NCBI GenBank assembly: GCA_021469345.1
Contig: GCA_021469345.1_3049.1
Reading direction: 5' to 3' (one strand)
DNA length: 64,000 nt
Origin: a phage
Each line of letters starts with the position of its first letter. Within the stretch, counting starts at the first letter, position 1. This document shows positions 1,066 to 64,000 of the stretch, in pieces. The position numbers were made by a program, and so were the translations under genes. Below the pieces are notes generated by a model. The model was not told the origin of the DNA. It was given only the letters and a program-made list of their open reading frames with translations, and searched no databases.

Positions 1066-1070
1066 GGCTT

Positions 1071-1099
1071 AGCCCCAGCCGAAAGGTTGGGGCTTTTTG
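1071..1099 (+). terminator. rho-independent terminator (10-bp stem, GAAA loop, T-run)
   Basis: AGCCCCAGCC-GAAA-GGTTGGGGCT followed by TTTT. Confidence 0.7.
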
Positions 1100-1100
1100 G

Positions 1101-1108
1101 TATAAATA
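1101..1108 (+). promoter_or_regulatory. T4-type late promoter core TATAAATA
   Basis: exact TATAAATA about 28 nt upstream of ATG 1137. Confidence 0.5.
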
Positions 1109-1599: not shown

Positions 1600-1606
1600 C
1601 ATTCTT

Positions 1607-1634
1607 AGCCCTAGCCGAAAGGTTGGGGCTTTTT
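1607..1634 (+). terminator. rho-independent terminator, near-identical copy of 1071-1099
   Basis: AGCCCTAGCC-GAAA-GGTTGGGGCT + TTTT; one mismatch versus first copy. Confidence 0.7.
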
Positions 1635-1748
1635 GGTATCTAGGCCTTTCCAGACCTCTCTAGGCATCATTTAGTTTATACCCTTTATAATATATTATCC
1701 TATCTTTTAATTGCCCCTCCCTGCCCCAGAATTCCCCAAAACTTTTTA

Positions 1749-1844
1749 AAAAATTTTTTCACAAAACTGTTTACATCCCTGTTCTTCTATGGTACTATAC
1801 AACTATCAACTACTGATACAGAAAACAACTTGGAGAACGAAATG
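1749..1844 (+). repeat. repeated early promoter-leader cassette (copy A)
   Basis: about 60-90 bp shared with 43728-43813 and 62911-63005, partly with 16410-16500 and 19040-19110. Confidence 0.6.
1769..1800 (+). promoter_or_regulatory. T4-type early promoter
   Basis: GTTTAC at 1769-1774, 18-nt spacer, TACTAT -10, A/T-rich upstream. Confidence 0.7.
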
Positions 1845-2105
1845 GATAATTACGGCGAACTGTTCAACTTCTTTATGAAATGCGTTTCAGAAGATTTTGG
1901 TCGTACAGTGAATGATATTAAAGTTATCGGTCCTGATCATCCGATGTTTGAAACTTACGCAGTAATGGGTAATGAAGATGGTCAGTGGTATACTGTAAAG
2001 GTTGTGATTAACATGTTCACGGCAGAAGGTTATGTTAAACTGTCTTCTAAAGTTTACCATGATAACGATGAAATCGCAGAAGAATATTTCAATAATATGA
2101 AATAA
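1842..2105 (+). CDS. hypothetical protein (e.x region)
   Basis: track ORF trimmed from TTG 1830 to ATG 1842; GGAGA SD. Confidence 0.6.
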   Translation: MDNYGELFNFFMKCVSEDFGRTVNDIKVIGPDHPMFETYAVMGNEDGQWYTVKVVINMFTAEGYVKLSSKVYHDNDEIAEEYFNNMK

Positions 2106-6158: not shown

Positions 6159-6632
6159 ATGAAAACATATCAAGAATTTATTACTGAAGCAGCTATTAAT
6201 TCTCAAATTATTGCTGAATCTTTTACTGATCTTTTGAAATTTAAAAAAGGCCAAAAAATCACTGCTGTATTGGATGATGGTACAGAAGTTGAGATGGATG
6301 TACAAGGATATAATTATGCAGTAGATGGAAAACTGTATAATAAATCTCATGCTAAATTTGATTCATTTGACGACTTTGTTAATACAGTTGAAGATGAAAA
6401 AACTCGTCGATCCATTGCAACTGGTGATGCTAAGGTTCTTATGGCACATGGTCATGAACGCATTCGCGCTAAACAGAATAAAATGGGTGAAGATAATTTT
6501 GCATTAGTTGGTTATCAATCTGGTAAACAAACCTATGGTTATCAGCGTACTGCTACCATGTATAATAAAAATGGTAAAATTGCCTTTGTGAATAGTAAGG
6601 GTTCTATTCAGTACGTTAAATCGTTCAAATAA
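6159..6632 (+). CDS. internal protein (ipIII-like) with capsid targeting sequence MKTYQEFITEA
   Basis: N-terminus matches T4 internal-protein CTS including gp21-type I-x-E cleavage context; position after e. Confidence 0.65.
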   Translation: MKTYQEFITEAAINSQIIAESFTDLLKFKKGQKITAVLDDGTEVEMDVQGYNYAVDGKLYNKSHAKFDSFDDFVNTVEDEKTRRSIATGDAKVLMAHGHERIRAKQNKMGEDNFALVGYQSGKQTYGYQRTATMYNKNGKIAFVNSKGSIQYVKSFK

Positions 6633-6785
6633 GCAAATAAGAAATATGGGAACAACCTGGACCTCATGATTCTGTGAGGGATTCCCGCCAACCTGTAATA
6701 AGGTCGAGCCCAAGTGCGGTAATGGGTAAATACAGAAATGGACAATTCATGCGCCACGGAATGGCCCAAACTTAGAGAGAATAAA

Positions 6786-8780: not shown

Positions 8781-8810
8781 GTTTACTTTTCCTCTTGACT
8801 GTGGTATAAT
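8781..8810 (+). promoter_or_regulatory. T4-type early promoter
   Basis: GTTTAC 8781-8786, 18-nt spacer, TATAAT 8805-8810. Confidence 0.7.
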
Positions 8811-19048: not shown

Positions 19049-19080
19049 GTTTACAAGACTGTTCCTCTGTGGTACTATAC
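19049..19080 (+). promoter_or_regulatory. T4-type early promoter (cassette family)
   Basis: GTTTAC 19049-19054, GGTACTATACAACTATCAACTAC. Confidence 0.7.
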
Positions 19081-49216: not shown

Positions 49217-49245
49217 TTTACAAGCTGACGAGACTATGGTATAGT
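49216..49245 (+). promoter_or_regulatory. T4-type early promoter
   Basis: GTTTAC 49216-49221, 18-nt spacer, TATAGT; imperfect inverted repeat around -10. Confidence 0.6.
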
Positions 49246-56355: not shown

Positions 56356-56385
56356 GTTTACTTTCCTTTCTAACGATGATATGAT
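56356..56385 (+). promoter_or_regulatory. T4-type early promoter
   Basis: GTTTAC 56356-56361, 18-nt spacer, TATGAT. Confidence 0.55.
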
Positions 56386-58509: not shown

Positions 58510-58821
58510 ATGGTTTATGTATATGCAATAGTTTATCGAGATATGGAAGGATTTACTGTCCCGGTTCCACTTGATGAGCATCGTCCTGCAGTATTTTTTA
58601 GAAAGGATATTGCAGATAAAGTTTTCGATACTTTGAAAACGCAGTATAAAACAGATTTAAAAATGGGAGTTCTAAGAATGGTCGAAACTCCGCGTAAGTT
58701 CTGGTTTAATAAGCTTGAAATGAAACACGTTAAACTAGATGCGGAGACACAAAGATTATATCAGCGAATTTTAGATACTGGGCGTATTGTTAGTATTCCA
58801 ATTGCAGGGACTTTCCGATGA
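58510..58821 (+). CDS. hypothetical protein (dda.1 position)
   Basis: ORF track. Confidence 0.5.
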   Translation: MVYVYAIVYRDMEGFTVPVPLDEHRPAVFFRKDIADKVFDTLKTQYKTDLKMGVLRMVETPRKFWFNKLEMKHVKLDAETQRLYQRILDTGRIVSIPIAGTFR

Positions 58822-60137
58822 CATTTGATGATTTGACAGAAGGCCAGAAAAATGCCTTTAACATTGTTATGAAGGCTATTAAAGAAAAGAAACATCATGT
58901 AACTATTAATGGACCTGCCGGTACCGGTAAGACTACTCTTACTAAGTTCATCATTGAAGCTTTAATATCTACGGGTGAAACTGGTATTATTTTAGCAGCT
59001 CCTACGCATGCGGCTAAAAAGATTCTTTCAAAACTATCAGGGAAAGAAGCGAGTACTATTCACAGTATTCTTAAAATTAACCCAGTTACGTATGAAGAAA
59101 ACGTTCTTTTTGAACAGAAGGAAGTGCCAGATTTAGCTAAATGTAGGGTATTAATCTGCGACGAAGTGTCAATGTATGATAGAAAGCTATTTAAAATTCT
59201 GCTTTCAACTATCCCGCCGTGGTGTACTATAATTGGAATAGGTGATAATAAGCAAATTAGACCTGTTGATCCAGGAGAAAACACTGCTTATATTAGTCCA
59301 TTCTTTACACATAAAGATTTTTATCAGTGTGAACTCACTGAAGTTAAACGCAGTAATGCTCCTATTATTGATGTAGCTACTGACGTTCGTAACGGTAAGT
59401 GGATTTATGATAAAATTGTTGACGGGCATGGAGTACGTGGATTTACTGGTGATACCGCTTTACGTGATTTTATGGTAAATTATTTTTCAATCGTCAAATC
59501 TCTAGATGATTTGTTTGAAAATCGCGTAATGGCATTTACGAATAAATCTGTTGATAAGTTAAATAGCATTATTCGTAAAAAGATTTTTGAAACTGATAAA
59601 GATTTTATTGTCGGTGAAATTATTGTAATGCAGGAACCATTAATTAAAACATATAAAATTGATGGAAAGCCTGTGTCAGAAATTATTTTTAATAACGGAC
59701 AGTTAGTTCGTATTATAGAAGCAGAGTATACATCAACCTTTGTTAAAGCTCGTGGTGTTCCTGGAGAATATCTAATTCGTCATTGGGATTTAACAGTAGA
59801 AACTTACGGCGATGATGAATATTATCGTGAAAAGATTAAAATAATTTCATCTGATGAAGAACTGTATAAGTTTAACCTATTTTTAGGTAAAACGGCAGAA
59901 ACTTATAAAAATTGGAACAAAGGCGGAAAAGCTCCGTGGAGTGATTTTTGGGATGCTAAATCACAGTTTAGTAAAGTGAAAGCACTTCCTGCATCAACAT
60001 TCCATAAAGCTCAGGGCATGTCTGTAGACCGTGCTTTCATTTATACGCCTTGTATTCATTATGCAGATGCTGAATTGGCCCAACAACTTCTTTATGTTGG
60101 TGTTACCCGTGGTCGTTATGATGTATTTTATGTATGA
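58818..60137 (+). CDS. dda: Dda DNA helicase (SF1B, 439 aa)
   Basis: Walker A GPAGTGKT, Walker B LICDEVSM; size as T4 Dda. Confidence 0.95.
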   Translation: MTFDDLTEGQKNAFNIVMKAIKEKKHHVTINGPAGTGKTTLTKFIIEALISTGETGIILAAPTHAAKKILSKLSGKEASTIHSILKINPVTYEENVLFEQKEVPDLAKCRVLICDEVSMYDRKLFKILLSTIPPWCTIIGIGDNKQIRPVDPGENTAYISPFFTHKDFYQCELTEVKRSNAPIIDVATDVRNGKWIYDKIVDGHGVRGFTGDTALRDFMVNYFSIVKSLDDLFENRVMAFTNKSVDKLNSIIRKKIFETDKDFIVGEIIVMQEPLIKTYKIDGKPVSEIIFNNGQLVRIIEAEYTSTFVKARGVPGEYLIRHWDLTVETYGDDEYYREKIKIISSDEELYKFNLFLGKTAETYKNWNKGGKAPWSDFWDAKSQFSKVKALPASTFHKAQGMSVDRAFIYTPCIHYADAELAQQLLYVGVTRGRYDVFYV

Positions 60138-60639: not shown

Positions 60640-61322
60640 TGTTTGATTTTATTATAGATTTTGAAACAATGGGAAGCGGTGAAAAGGCAGCTGTTATTGA
60701 TTTGGCTGTTATTGCCTTTGACCCTAATCCAGAAGTAGTTGAAACATTCGATGAACTAGTTTCACGTGGCATTAAAATCAAATTTGATTTAAAAAGCCAA
60801 AAAGGACATCGTCTTTTTACTAAAAGCACTATCGAATGGTGGAAGAATCAATCCCCTGAAGCTCGAAAAAATATTGCACCATCAGATGAAGATGTAAGCA
60901 TCATTGATGGTATTGCAAAATTTAATGATTACATCAATGCACATAATATCGATCCTTGGAAATCTCAGGGTTGGTGTCGTGGAATGTCGTTTGATTTTCC
61001 AATTTTAGTCGATCTCATTCGCGATATTCAACGTCTTAATGGCGTTTCTGAGAATGAGCTTGATACATTTAAGTTAGAACCGTGTAAATTTTGGAATCAG
61101 CGTGATATTCGTACCAGAATTGAAGCACTTCTGCTTGTTCGTGATATGACCACGTGTCCTCTTCCAAAAGGAACCTTAGATGGATTTGTTGCGCATAATT
61201 CTATTCATGACTGTGCGAAAGACATCCTGATGATGAAGTATGCTTTGCGATACGCTATGGGTCTTGAAGATGCTCCATCAGAGGAAGAGTGCGATCCTCT
61301 ATCTCTTCCAACAAAACGATAA
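60639..61322 (+). CDS. dexA: exonuclease A DexA (DEDDh 3'-5' exonuclease, 227 aa)
   Basis: DFET motif near N-terminus and HNSIHD near C-terminus; size as T4 DexA. Confidence 0.88.
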   Translation: MFDFIIDFETMGSGEKAAVIDLAVIAFDPNPEVVETFDELVSRGIKIKFDLKSQKGHRLFTKSTIEWWKNQSPEARKNIAPSDEDVSIIDGIAKFNDYINAHNIDPWKSQGWCRGMSFDFPILVDLIRDIQRLNGVSENELDTFKLEPCKFWNQRDIRTRIEALLLVRDMTTCPLPKGTLDGFVAHNSIHDCAKDILMMKYALRYAMGLEDAPSEEECDPLSLPTKR

Positions 61323-61327
61323 AAAGT

Positions 61328-61358
61328 TGTTTACTTCCTCAGTTAGTTGTGGTATTAT
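61328..61358 (+). promoter_or_regulatory. T4-type early promoter
   Basis: GTTTAC near 61328 and TATTAT -10; coordinates may be off by 1. Confidence 0.55.
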
Positions 61359-61385
61359 AACACCATAGCTACTGAGGATAATAAA

Positions 61386-61886
61386 ATGAAAATTTATCGT
61401 GTTGAATCATCGTTTAGTATTCTTAATTATGAAGATGCTATAACAATACGTCGAAATCTTTGTGTTCAAATAACGCCGTACAGGAGTATAATAGATTCAT
61501 GGAGCGAAGAGTGGCTATTACACGTAGGTTATGACAGACCTAATTTTATGCATCATAGCGATAATAATAAAAGAATTCCTTTACCACACGAAGATAAACT
61601 ATTAGTTAAAAACGCTAATAAAGTAATTAATACTAAGTTCAAGAAAGATTATGTTGGAGTAGAATATCATATTCCAGGATGGTTTATAGGTCTTTATCAT
61701 TTTGCTTTCGCTAGCGAATATGATATGATGAGATGGTTCACGCGAGAAGAGCGGGAAGAATTATCTTCTAAAGGATTTTATCTCGCTGTATACGAAGTTC
61801 CTGAAGATGAAGTTATCATTGGTGGGCACCAAGTAATGTTCCGCAAATCGCATGCTGAATTAAAAGGCTTTATTACTTTAGATTAA
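61386..61886 (+). CDS. hypothetical protein
   Basis: track ORF 61347-61886 trimmed to in-frame ATG (MKIYRVESS). Confidence 0.5.
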   Translation: MKIYRVESSFSILNYEDAITIRRNLCVQITPYRSIIDSWSEEWLLHVGYDRPNFMHHSDNNKRIPLPHEDKLLVKNANKVINTKFKKDYVGVEYHIPGWFIGLYHFAFASEYDMMRWFTREEREELSSKGFYLAVYEVPEDEVIIGGHQVMFRKSHAELKGFITLD

Positions 61887-61896
61887 AGAGAAAATC

Positions 61897-62334
61897 ATGA
61901 TTAAAAATAATGCTGTTTATCAATTGAAAAAATTTGATGAAATTAAGAATTTTTCGGTACTGTCTAATACAGCTCATAATAAGTTTTGTGAACTTCTTGG
62001 TTTAACTGGCGGATATCCTTTTACTGTTATTAGTGTTAATAGCGGAATTCTTATCGATATGATGTATATTGAAATTAGAAACTATTATGGAATGGTATCA
62101 CCGCTTATTATTTATGAAAAAGATTTTAGTCTATTGACAGAAATTGAAAAACCTGAAGATCCAACTGATCTACTGTGTAAGGCAGTTTATATTCGTCGTC
62201 CATTCGCGAATCCTGTGGGTGGATGGGTGACTGATCAGTGGATTGAAGATGGTGTTGAACTTCTGAACGTAGTTCATGCTGGAGAGTACTCTGTAGTTCC
62301 TCGCAGCGCAGTGATTAATGTTCGTGTAAGCTAG
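61897..62334 (+). CDS. hypothetical protein, paralog of the 62408 ORF
   Basis: C-terminal GWVTDQWIEDGVELLNVVHAGEYSVVP matches AYITDQWVEDGVKLYNAVFLGTYKVIP. Confidence 0.5.
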   Translation: MIKNNAVYQLKKFDEIKNFSVLSNTAHNKFCELLGLTGGYPFTVISVNSGILIDMMYIEIRNYYGMVSPLIIYEKDFSLLTEIEKPEDPTDLLCKAVYIRRPFANPVGGWVTDQWIEDGVELLNVVHAGEYSVVPRSAVINVRVS

Positions 62335-62363
62335 TTTACAAACTCTTGGGACCAGAGTATAAT
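62334..62363 (+). promoter_or_regulatory. T4-type early promoter with stem-loop around -10
   Basis: GTTTAC 62334-62339, 18-nt spacer, TATAAT 62358-62363 flanked by GGGACC/GGTCCC. Confidence 0.6.
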
Positions 62364-62407
62364 GGTCCCGTGGAGTATAAAATCTTTTTAACAAGTGAGA
62401 GATAACT

Positions 62408-62905
62408 ATGATTATTAATATTGGTGAATTAGCTCGTGTATCTGATAAATCCCGTTCTAAAGCAGCAGGAAAATTGGTCGAAATTGTAAGCATTCAGCTT
62501 AAACACGGCGTTAAAGATGAAGATTCTGAAGTAAAAGTGCGTATCATTCCTAAAGATGGAAAGTCTAAACCTCAGTTTGGTTATGTTCGCGCGAAATTTC
62601 TTGAATCTGCGTTTTTGAAAGCTGTTCCCGCTAAAGGAATTGAAACGATTGATACTTCGCATGTAGGTGTAGACTTTAAGTGGAAACTCGGTCAGGCTAT
62701 TAAGTTCATTGCTCCTTATGAATTCGAATTTACCGAAGATGAGGAAGGGGTTGTTCAAAAACATCGTACTCGTGCTATGTGTGCATACATTACCGATCAA
62801 TGGGTAGAAGATGGCGTTAAGTTGTACAACGCGGTATTTTTAGGAACATACAAAGTCATTCCTGAAAGTTGGATTAAACACTATAGCAAAGCTCGCTGTG
62901 CATAA
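62408..62905 (+). CDS. hypothetical protein (165 aa)
   Basis: ORF track; paralog of the 61897 ORF. Confidence 0.5.
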   Translation: MIINIGELARVSDKSRSKAAGKLVEIVSIQLKHGVKDEDSEVKVRIIPKDGKSKPQFGYVRAKFLESAFLKAVPAKGIETIDTSHVGVDFKWKLGQAIKFIAPYEFEFTEDEEGVVQKHRTRAMCAYITDQWVEDGVKLYNAVFLGTYKVIPESWIKHYSKARCA

Positions 62906-62910
62906 AGTTT

Positions 62911-63026
62911 AAAATTTTTTCATAAAACTATATACATCAGTAGTTGATTATGGTACTATATCAATATCAACTACTGATACAGAAAACAACTTGGAGAATA
63001 AAATGGAAATTCGCCAAAGGTGCTGA
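62911..63026 (+). repeat. repeated early promoter-leader cassette (copy C) with truncated 7-codon ORF
   Basis: leader CAACTACTGATACAGAAAACAACTTGGAGAA identical to copy A; ATG at 63003 followed by stop after 7 codons; degenerate -35. Confidence 0.55.
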
Positions 63027-63076
63027 TACTCTTCTGAAACGCATCGCTCCAATGTTTAATTAATGAGGAAATTGTA

Positions 63077-63292
63077 ATGAAACGTAAAATTGTTCAGAAC
63101 TGCACTAATGATGAATTTGAAGATGTATTATTTGATCCAAATTTGGTAGTAGTTCAAAAGGAACATACTAGCAAGTTTACTCACTTGACTTCGGTTTATG
63201 TGTATGAGAAAGTCGGTGATAAACAGCCAATTTACGGTGTATTTCGTGAAATTACTGAAGATGGCACAACTTACTGGAAGGAAATTTATTAA
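63077..63292 (+). CDS. hypothetical protein
   Basis: ORF track; GAGGAAA SD. Confidence 0.45.
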
Positions 63293-63711
63293 TGGCTATT
63301 AAATTTGAAGTTAATAAATGGTATCAATTTAAAAATAAACAAGCTCAAGAAAATTTTATTAAAGACCATACTGATAACGGAATCTATGCACGACGTTTAG
63401 GTATGGAGCCTTTTAAAATTTTAGATGCTGATTATCTTGGGCGTCCTACTAAAATTATGACATCCATAGGTGTGCTCAAACGTTGTGCCGGTGGTGATAT
63501 CCTTGACGAAAACTTTATCTGGCTCTCTACTAACGAAGCTGGGTTCTTTGATGAAGTTGAAAATCCATATCAGGCTGCTGAAGAACAAGAGCAGGAAGAG
63601 CAAGAACAAATAGAAGATTTCACAGAATTCCCGGTAATGAAAGTTACTATTGAAAATAATGAACAAGCATGGTCCTTGTATCAAATGTTGAAAGCCCACT
63701 TTAAGGAATAA
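63292..63711 (+). CDS. hypothetical protein with acidic [10 protein letters not shown] stretch
   Basis: ORF track. Confidence 0.45.
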
Positions 63712-63713
63712 TT

Positions 63714-63890
63714 ATGCCTCTTTATGATTATAAATGTCAATCCAAAGACTGCGCAAAAGAATACGAAAAAATCAAGAAAATTTCTGAAATGGATACTGAT
63801 GTATGTCCTGATTGTCATCGGATTGCTATTCGGTTAGTTTCCGCTCCTAAGCATGTGAATGGTGGTTTTTACGACTTACTTAAAGGGTAA
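63714..63890 (+). CDS. FmdB-type zinc-ribbon protein (58 aa)
   Basis: MPLYDYKCQSKDC...CPDCH pattern typical of FmdB zinc-ribbon family. Confidence 0.5.
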   Translation: MPLYDYKCQSKDCAKEYEKIKKISEMDTDVCPDCHRIAIRLVSAPKHVNGGFYDLLKG

Positions 63891-63892
63891 TT

Positions 63893-64000
63893 ATGTTTAA
63901 AATCGGTAAGAAATATCGTATTCGCGAAGGCGAAGAAAAGAAATATCTAATGTCTGCTATTTATAGGAATGGTTCTATTAATGCTGTAATATCTACAAGC
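63893..64000 (+). CDS. hypothetical protein, 5' fragment truncated by window end
   Basis: ATG 63893 after upstream stop; open to window end. Confidence 0.3.
   Translation, partial: MFKIGKKYRIREGEEKKYLMSAIYRNGSINAVISTS

Follow-up and report, generated by a model that had tools for sequence, protein, structure and literature searches.

The segment between the genes motB and cef of a T4-like phage very probably consists of the motB-cef early promoter-leader cassette followed by the two ends of a gene, termed ORF89 here, the middle of which has been lost. The segment lies in a 171-bp intergenic gap in a stretch of 64,000 nucleotides from a Tequatrovirus, and we refer to this entire stretch as the window. 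Both components are of known kinds: a T4 early promoter of the PeSL type stands beside an ordinary microhomology deletion scar, and T4 carries the same allele. A preliminary description of the sequence had recorded a -35 hexamer TATACA, an SD, an ATG, a 7-codon ORF reading MEIRQRC and ending at 63026, and a next gene starting at 63077, and had interpreted the arrangement as a likely recombination scar in which the gene downstream of the cassette was deleted or replaced. Each of these features is present where it was placed, the next gene being cef. The observation is confirmed, and the interpretation is supported and essentially right, with the mechanism and the extent of the inverted repeat amended below.

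The early promoter cassette downstream of motB

At the 3' end of the window, the plus strand carries dda, dexA.2, dexA.1, dexA, motB.2, motB.1, motB, cef, goF, and 39.2 in T4 order (Table 1). A 1.1-kb query around the segment matched 564 phage records, nearly all of them from T-even phages of Escherichia, Shigella, Yersinia, and Salmonella. Allele counts were taken from the phage GenBank collection of August 2025, in which 449 records cover the locus.

Table 1. Positions in the window of the features in and around the motB-cef gap, with related cassettes and promoters elsewhere on the same strand.
Feature	Position	Strand	Description
dda	58818-60137	+	
motB	62408-62905	+	upstream gene, 165 aa, stop TAA 62903-62905; from the ORF list; orthologous CDS named MotB in T4, T6, and teqdroes
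A/T-rich, UP-element-like tract	62906-62929	+	24 nt 5' of the -35, 88% A/T
-35 hexamer TATACA	62931-62936	+	invariant in 20 of 20 sequences read
Hairpin, left arm ATCAGTAGTTGAT	62936-62948	+	13-bp perfect inverted repeat; fills the -35/-10 spacer
Extended -10	62951-62959	+	TGn 62951-62953 and TACTAT 62954-62959; apex of the hairpin
Hairpin, inner 5-bp stem	62951-62955 / 62959-62963		
Hairpin, right arm ATCAACTACTGAT	62966-62978	+	first base is the predicted transcription start
Leader, SD, and ancestral ORF89 ATG	62979-63005	+	SD GGAG 62993-62996; ATG 63003-63005
7-codon ORF MEIRQRC	63003-63026	+	ATG GAA ATT CGC CAA AGG TGC TGA; out-of-frame read across the deletion junction
ORF89 3' remnant	63008-63063	+	last 56 nt, out of frame with the ATG; ancestral stop TAA 63061-63063
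cef with SD	63065-63292	+	71 aa; SD GAGG 63065-63068; CDS 63077-63292; from the ORF list and orthologues
goF	63292-63711	+	directly after cef
Closest paralogous cassette	1750-1846	+	84% identical over 97 nt (alignment); no hairpin in this copy
-10 elements of the eight hairpin promoters	8805, 13796, 16935, 19073, 49240, 56380, 61353, 62954	+	

Between 62906 and 63005, an A/T tract, a -35, a TGn, a -10 bracketed by a hairpin, a leader, an SD, and an ATG follow one another, a layout by which this stretch, as judged from its sequence, can be assigned to the published PeSLs, as an early promoter cassette of the T4 type. PeSLs are the promoter-early stem-loop cassettes of T4-type phages (Arbiol et al. 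2010, PMC2839356; Comeau et al. 2014, PMC4122927). The cassette shares with them an upstream stop codon at an A/T-rich tract, here that of motB, followed by a predicted sigma-70-type early promoter, a stem-loop, and the SD and start of a small non-essential ORF, as well as a location in a plastic region with gain and loss of ORFs. Stem-loop subclasses of PeSLs include one “overlapping the -10 box” (PMC2839356), which is the position of the stem-loop found here, and the -10 TACTAT and the 17-bp spacer agree with the T4/PST PeSL consensus TTTACW-N17-TAYWAT (PMC4122927). The cassette departs from this model in three respects. Its -35 has one mismatch to TTTACW and has lost the G at -36, its stem is A/T-rich (4 of 13 pairs are G-C) as opposed to the GN-loop-CN form of PeSLs, and its stem-loop surrounds the -10, whereas T4/PST PeSLs are reported with stem-loops just upstream of the promoter (PMC4122927).

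T4 early promoters are of the UP/-35/TGn/-10 type (PMC2988021). The promoter at 62911 resembles the canonical ones in its A/T-rich upstream tract, 17-bp spacer, TGn, and TAnnnT -10 (Hinton 2010, PMC2988021; Nolan et al. 2006, PMC1524935), and its sequence is identical in T4 itself (about 6594-6640, complement). Unlike them, it carries two substitutions in the very conserved GTTTAC: together with the preceding base, the -35 reads ATATACA, versus GTTTACA in the T4 consensus (G-36 to A, T-34 to A). Since TGn/-10 promoters can do without -35 contact (PMC2988021), the weakened -35 fits a promoter that is predicted to be active. With the last T of the -10 at -7, as in T4 early-promoter numbering (PMC1524935), transcription is predicted to start at 62966, 7 nt past that T, which corresponds to about T4 coordinate 6594 (complement). 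The -35 had been called degenerate in the preliminary description. The two mismatches to GTTTACA bear this out, but they do not reflect decay, as the hexamer is the same in phages with an intact gene behind the cassette.

A simple sigma-70 scan (TTGACA/TATAAT rule, threshold 9 of 12) did not flag this promoter, which reaches 8 of 12 by hand count. The scan was replaced by an inventory based on a T4-specific pattern, which lists 18 T4-type early promoters on this strand of the window; the copy at 62911 is the only one among them without GTTTAC. Cassettes of this family occur far more often than expected by chance, with five copies in the window (at 1750, 16413, 19030, 43728, and 62911). The closest paralogue, at 1750, has a nearly identical leader up to ATGGA, and its differences from the 62911 copy cluster in the -35 and spacer and in the 5 nt after the -10, i.e., at the positions that make the hairpin. 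Orthologues of the 1750 cassette in RB3 and RB69 records are located at gene e.8. The ORF behind this cassette was considered as a paralogue of ORF89 and rejected, as the proteins are dissimilar by inspection and the similarity ends about 10 nt into the ORFs.

Of 14 sequences, 11 share an identical 84-nt core of the 62911 cassette (CATAAAAC through the ATG), and each of the remaining three has one change that lies outside the promoter hexamers and hairpin arms. The spacer, the -10, and both hairpin arms are, like the -35, unchanged in all 20 sequences read. The differences seen in PYps14T, RB3, D5505, wV7, and two IMG/VR contigs affect the lengths of the A- and T-runs, which vary among phages, and the stretch of leader immediately 3' of the hairpin, which is where the cassettes of relatives vary. 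Over the 100-nt cassette, 366 of 536 records are at least 99% identical.

ORF89 and its internal deletion

The preliminary description had suggested an alignment of orthologous loci to see which gene follows this leader in related phages. In teqdroes, JoYop, RB3, and wV7, this leader with its SD and ATG is followed by the gene for the 89-aa ORF89 protein (270 bp, MENLIIIEQSF...KFAKGAATLLKRIAPLFN in teqdroes and JoYop), which ends 13 nt before the cef ATG. A tblastn search with this protein returned 261 records at at least 95% identity. When aligned with the intact gene, the window is identical through ATGGA at the 5' end, and its 3' remnant reads KFAKGADTLLKRIAPMFN up to the stop versus KFAKGAATLLKRIAPLFN in the intact gene, i.e., 16 of the 18 C-terminal residues are kept. 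The middle of the gene is absent from the window, BCPEco_001, ASO78A, and T4.

The end points of the missing part coincide with AAAATT(T) repeats of ORF89 at codon 2 and at about codon 71, where the intact gene of teqdroes reads ATGG-AAAATTT-AATT (5' end) and GATGT-AAAATTT-GCC (3' end). The T4 junction, ATGG-AAAATT-CGCT, retains exactly one repeat copy and corresponds to a frame-shifting deletion of 208 bp that spans codons 3-71. In the window, the junction ATGG-AAATT-CGCC has one A fewer than T4, leaving 209 bp missing; it falls at about 63007/63008, although the AAATT microhomology (63007-63011) leaves its exact position ambiguous. Neither length is a multiple of 3, and in the window the frame closes after 7 codons. 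Deletions between short direct repeats are familiar from studies of the T4 rII region. As in such deletions, the end points here are a 6-7-bp repeat of which one copy is left, and the T4 sequence is the exact predicted product; what differs is that the allele has spread, being found in about 40% of sequenced Tequatroviruses, and that further indels of 1-3 nt have accumulated in it. Events of this type proceed via replication slippage or illegitimate recombination (Albertini et al. 1982, cited in PMC4122927). Of the two fates proposed earlier for the downstream gene, deletion therefore stands, given that its last 56 nt remain, and replacement does not.

Three alleles of the locus were distinguished. 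ORF89 is intact in about 261 records, carries the internal deletion in 177 (T4, T6, RB32, RB33, and others, counted with a 44-nt junction probe), and is completely removed in 4 (PYps14T, PYps15T, ES12, and ES26), which sums to about 442 versus the 449 records that cover the locus. The exact 44-nt junction of the window occurs in 11 of the 177 deletion-allele records. In the complete-removal allele, the stump is gone and the SD of the cassette is fused to the cef start (TTGGAGAAT joined to GTAATGAAAC). Only two IMG/VR contigs contain this promoter, one with the intact and one with the deleted allele. Deletion rather than insertion is the direction of change because the 3' end survives, microhomology is present, and distant full-length homologues exist; the surviving remnant and the distant homologues likewise contradict ORF89 being a recent insertion elsewhere. 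Deletion alleles carry both TTTGCC-type and TTCGCC-type 3' flanks, and both types are also found among intact alleles. The deletion may be either a single ancestral event or a recurrent one at the same repeats.

ORF89 could also have been lost through recombination between two promoter cassettes, the PeSL-PeSL mini-circle excision proposed for modular shuffling in T4-type phages. A PeSL-type cassette is indeed present in a plastic region, ORF89 travels with a cassette of its own at another locus in Klebsiella phages, and the 1750 cassette has almost the same leader. This route is nonetheless very unlikely here, as the 13-nt gap between ORF89 and cef holds no second cassette, both end points are located inside the ORF at the AAAATT(T) repeats, and both gene ends survive. 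The second-step deletion in PYps14T also runs between short similarities in the SD region and not between two promoters. The authors of the PeSL model themselves allow for non-PeSL events at single-PeSL loci, and they attribute indels beside PeSLs to recombination at small chance homologies (PMC4122927). What distinguishes the present locus from PeSL-PeSL loss is a microhomology deletion inside the ORF. The term recombination scar thus holds for an internal deletion via the AAAATT(T) repeats, and not for a cassette-to-cassette exchange.

The stump left by the deletion has continued to change. Its length is 74-77 nt, 12 phages contain 11 distinct versions with 3 indel columns, and its mean pairwise difference per site (0.077) exceeds that of the motB 3' end (0.031) and the cef 5' end (0.048), which makes it the fastest-evolving segment of the locus. 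In 14 other deletion-allele sequences, the peptides read from the ATG have 4, 7, 8, 11, or 20 codons in different frames: MEIR (4; fPS-2, Lutter, and one IMG/VR contig), MEIRQRC (7; BCPEco_001, as in the window), MDNSLKVR (8; CHD94UKE2), the 11-residue peptides MENSLKVLILF (T4), MDNSLKVLILF (ASO78A and T6), MENSPKVLILF (G50), MENLPKVLLLF (G4498), and MENLPKVLPLF (KNP1), and MENSLKVADTLLKRIAPLFN (20; BCPShso_001).

A short ORF that recurred unchanged in related genomes would, according to the preliminary description, have implied a functional leader peptide. Such an ORF could regulate cef as an upstream ORF, by attenuation, by translational coupling, or by shielding the mRNA from Rho or nucleases. 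The GGAG SD and the ATG are kept in most deletion-allele phages, and T4 early RNAs need translation to escape polarity (PMC2988021), both of which speak for a role of this kind. A conserved short ORF was sought in the relatives and not found: the sequence, length, and frame of the peptide vary, T6 has GAAG in place of the GGAG SD, and the four phages without the stump have cef directly behind the SD. By these three observations, there is no conserved leader peptide. In addition, about 261 phages have the full gene at this position, the stump evolves faster than its surroundings, and the short ORF ends 50 nt before the ATG of cef, which has an SD of its own. We consider a functional leader peptide extremely unlikely and read the 7-codon ORF, from these comparisons, as a deletion scar.

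The mechanical ORF list contains two further reading frames across the segment, a 39-aa ORF with a TTG start (62944-63063, plus strand) and a 34-aa ORF on the minus strand (62948-63052), and GenBank annotations include a plus-strand CDS there in fPS-2 and Lutter and a minus-strand CDS in CHD94UKE2. That one of these is the real gene is almost certainly wrong. The TTG codon is part of the promoter spacer and precedes the predicted transcription start, and its frame stays open in AAA (-1) variant phages alone. It spans just 20 codons in T4, G50, G4498, KNP1, and D5505 and 15-17 in ASO78A, T6, and CHD94UKE2, and in these eight phages it lacks a usable start, as it contains no start codon at all or a single ATG placed 2 codons ahead of the stop. 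Against the minus-strand ORF stands the fact that the neighbouring genes are all on the plus strand. The deletion scar remains our reading of the segment, and several CDS and “terminator” calls of GenBank records in the motB-cef gap are probably artefacts.

In phages with an intact ORF89, no promoter is found in the 13 nt between this gene and cef. Because ORF89 abuts cef in this manner, the cassette would act as the proximal promoter of cef-goF in every allele, which would account for its retention with an unchanged core. By this reading of the gene order, the cassette is not orphaned in either the intact or the deleted state. In the window, cef is the first intact gene that it serves.

ORF89 itself is an early gene that phages can dispense with and that moves together with a promoter of its own. 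A homologue with ~41% identity is present in ~140 Klebsiella T4-like phages. In one of them, PKO111, it is found elsewhere, with no motB or cef nearby and with its own early-promoter cassette directly upstream (GTTTAC-N17-TACTAT...GGAGAATAAAATG), an arrangement that fits the arrival of ORF89 by a “PeSL + ORFan module” route. In PHROGs, ORF89 belongs to phrog_3720, a family of unknown function. Searches against Pfam and against PDB sequences gave no match, and a large protein search returned only 2 clusters, near-identical ones. A single-sequence AlphaFold model of moderate quality (pLDDT 72.5, pTM 0.63) has the order strand-strand-strand-helix-strand-strand-helix, and a Foldseek search of the PDB with this model gave nothing below E = 0.1. 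Weak RNase-H-like or ASKHA-like matches recurred (TM 0.3-0.54) but do not count as evidence for such a fold.

The hairpin around the -10 element

The inverted repeat around the -10 had been described as 11 bp long; it comprises 13 perfect base pairs and an inner 5-bp stem (Table 1). Folded as RNA, this 13+5-bp hairpin has a predicted energy of -20.2 kcal/mol (z = -6.9), and none of 200 shuffled sequences was as stable. As the left arm is upstream of the predicted transcription start, the hairpin would be confined to read-through RNA from motB. The repeat and the altered -35 are not products of decay, since both are identical in phages with the intact and with the deleted gene.

Hairpins of this design recur in the window. 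Eight of the 18 early promoters have one of -18 to -24 kcal/mol (z <= -3), with the spacer as left arm and the transcribed leader as right arm. In four of these eight (-10 at 8805, 19073, 56380, and 61353) the right arm contains the SD, while at 62911 the SD lies 15 nt past the hairpin and is not covered by it. At the T4 lysozyme gene e, soc, gene 49, and I-TevI, hairpins separate read-through from promoter-proximal transcripts; there, the SD is sequestered in the 3' arm, and the internal promoters are late or middle ones. The motB-cef hairpin resembles them in that the promoter is inside the hairpin, so that transcripts initiated there do not contain the 5' arm and folding would be limited to read-through RNA. 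It differs in that its promoter is early and its SD lies beyond the hairpin, so that there is no obvious gating of translation.

Two observations make a classical intrinsic terminator unlikely: the stem, with 4 G-C pairs in 13, is followed by ACAGAAAACAAC with no U-tract, and a terminator scan of 61200-64000 returned 0 terminator-like sites. In one GenBank record, the hairpin carries the label of a predicted terminator. Among PeSLs, one stem-loop, that of RB49/phi1, terminated transcription strongly in a reporter (PMC2839356). By analogy with such tested stem-loops, we propose with low confidence that the hairpin may serve as an attenuator or 3'-cap for motB read-through RNA. An Rfam search of 62700-63300 on both strands gave no match at E <= 1. 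A scan of IMG/VR for covariation, with both arms set to N, recovered only 2 contigs, and the arms are identical in both.

The two arms and the sequence between them form a 43-nt near-palindrome. None of its 33 positions outside the hexamers is a variable column; by hand estimate, ~3 variable columns would be expected at flank rates (7-13% variable columns) and ~8 at the stump rate. This invariance could partly reflect promoter constraint or recent common ancestry. It is also the basis for a different reading, in which the conserved near-palindrome and the non-consensus -35 constitute a dedicated control element beyond a generic PeSL stem-loop, to which we give a slim chance. One variant of such an element would be an operator bound by a dimeric protein, and MotB, whose gene lies immediately upstream of the cassette, is a DNA-binding protein. 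The other would be an RNA or DNA structure by which cef-goF expression is coupled to transcription coming in from motB.

For the operator variant, in which the near-palindrome on the -10 would bind a dimeric phage or host regulator and the weak -35 would make the promoter dependent or repressible, one may cite that a spacer, usually free to vary, is invariant in 20 of 20 sequences next to a leader and an A/T tract that do vary, and that this is the sole non-consensus -35 among the 18 early promoters of the window. However, the analysis turned up neither a candidate binding protein nor a repeated operator, and seven other promoters in the window have hairpins at the same position with unrelated arms, which favours a structural role at the RNA or single-stranded DNA level. 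An operator in this strict sense accordingly has a very small probability, and a stem-loop acting on read-through RNA is the role we carry forward, at the low confidence given above.

A proposed history of the locus

The ancestral order at the locus was motB, cassette, ORF89, a 13-nt gap, cef, and goF. A 208-bp deletion between the AAAATT(T) repeats then joined the first 4-10 nt of ORF89 to its last ~56 nt, out of frame, and the lineage of the window dropped one more A, which leaves it 209 bp short and reading MEIRQRC before a stop. Since then the stump has drifted by substitutions and 1-3-nt indels, and in a few phages a second deletion has taken it entirely, fusing the SD of the cassette to the cef start codon.

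In the present-day window, host sigma-70 RNA polymerase would use the A/T tract, the TGn, and the -10, with a weakened -35, to start transcription at ~62966. The resulting RNA has a strong SD and an ATG, from which the 7-residue peptide is probably translated as a by-product, and cef would be translated from its own SD, 50 nt further on. In RNA reading through from motB, the hairpin would most likely attenuate or cap the upstream transcripts, if it behaves like PeSL stem-loops.

The papers on MotB, GoF, and omics do not discuss this promoter, and we found no paper that describes the ORF89 remnant. The analysis accounts for the unannotated 170-bp motB-cef gap of the reference phage T4, which consists of an early promoter and a gene wreck. 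The alleles document three-step reductive evolution in a plastic region of T4, from an intact gene through a frameshifting microhomology deletion to complete excision, with the promoter kept throughout. ORF89 is still kept by about 60% of sequenced relatives and may be a candidate host-specific accessory gene.

Hairpins around early promoters

A strong hairpin (fold energy -18 to -24 kcal/mol, z <= -3) encloses 8 of the 18 T4-type early promoters on the plus strand of the window, its left arm formed by the -35/-10 spacer and its right arm by the transcribed leader. At four of these promoters the right arm also contains the Shine-Dalgarno sequence (SD), so the ribosome-binding site (RBS) would be sequestered solely in RNA reading through from upstream. 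T4 e, soc and I-TevI follow a known logic in which the RBS is sequestered only in such read-through RNA; the logic predicted here is alike but is found at early promoters.

Hairpin-enclosed early promoters (by fold energy and z), paired cassettes and terminator-like repeats of the window
Feature	Position	Strand	SD in right arm
Early promoter	-10 at 8805	+	yes
Early promoter	-10 at 13796	+	
Early promoter	-10 at 16935	+	
Early promoter	-10 at 19073	+	yes
Early promoter	-10 at 49240	+	
Early promoter	-10 at 56380	+	yes
Early promoter	-10 at 61353	+	yes
Early promoter	-10 at 62954	+	
1750 cassette	1750-1846		
62911 cassette	62911-63007		
Repeat, copy 1	1068-1103		
Repeat, copy 2	1604-1639		

Separately, an apparent pair of duplicated intrinsic terminators consists of two 36-nt copies (97% identical, 536 bp apart) in which a T-run follows a G+C-rich hairpin (CTTAGCCCCAGCCGAAAGGTTGGGGCTTTTTGGTAT).

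Cassette copies and alleles between motB and cef

The 62911 promoter-leader cassette, located between motB and cef, shares with the 1750 cassette, the counterpart of the e.8 promoter in the RB3 and RB69 records, an almost identical leader that runs from the -10 into roughly the first 10 nt of the ORFs (ATGGATAATT at 1750, ATGGAAAATT at 62911). This near-identity, in front of ORFs that are otherwise unrelated, suggests duplication or gene conversion at the level of the cassette. The 1750-type ATGGATAATT is also read in the stump variants of ASO78A, T6 and CHD94UKE2, the stump being the two ends of the 89-aa gene ORF89 left by an internal deletion. In T6 (L010 160-170), the SD ahead of the stump ORF is GAAG rather than GGAG, which fits dispensable stump translation.

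In a third allele, seen in Yersinia phage PYps14T (L016 190-235) and likewise in PYps15T, ES12 and ES26, the whole stump is absent, leaving the cassette SD joined to the start codon of cef (TTGGAGAAT|GTAATGAAAC), so that translation of cef uses the cassette's RBS directly in these four phages.

GenBank records disagree on the motB-cef gap (L004, L007, L012, L014): in ASO78A the hairpin is labelled as a predicted 'rho-independent terminator', a 37-aa plus-strand CDS is entered for both fPS-2 and Lutter, and a 35-aa minus-strand CDS for CHD94UKE2; in T4, T6 and others the gap is unannotated. Conservation of the reading frame does not support the CDS calls.

Predicted fold and apparent mobility of ORF89

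The structural model of ORF89 (mff237c837fdf; the protein lies outside the window) is of moderate confidence, with the order strand-strand-strand-helix-strand-strand-helix. In the Foldseek comparison, folds of the RNase-H-like and ASKHA types recurred as weak, non-significant matches (E 0.1-0.8, TM 0.3-0.54), a possible resemblance that serves as a lead only. Klebsiella phage PKO111 encodes an ORF89 homologue (L015 1380-1779; 96 aa, 41% identity) at another locus, with neither motB nor cef close by. Since a T4-type early promoter cassette of its own lies directly upstream of this homologue, ORF89 appears to be mobile as a promoter-plus-ORF module.
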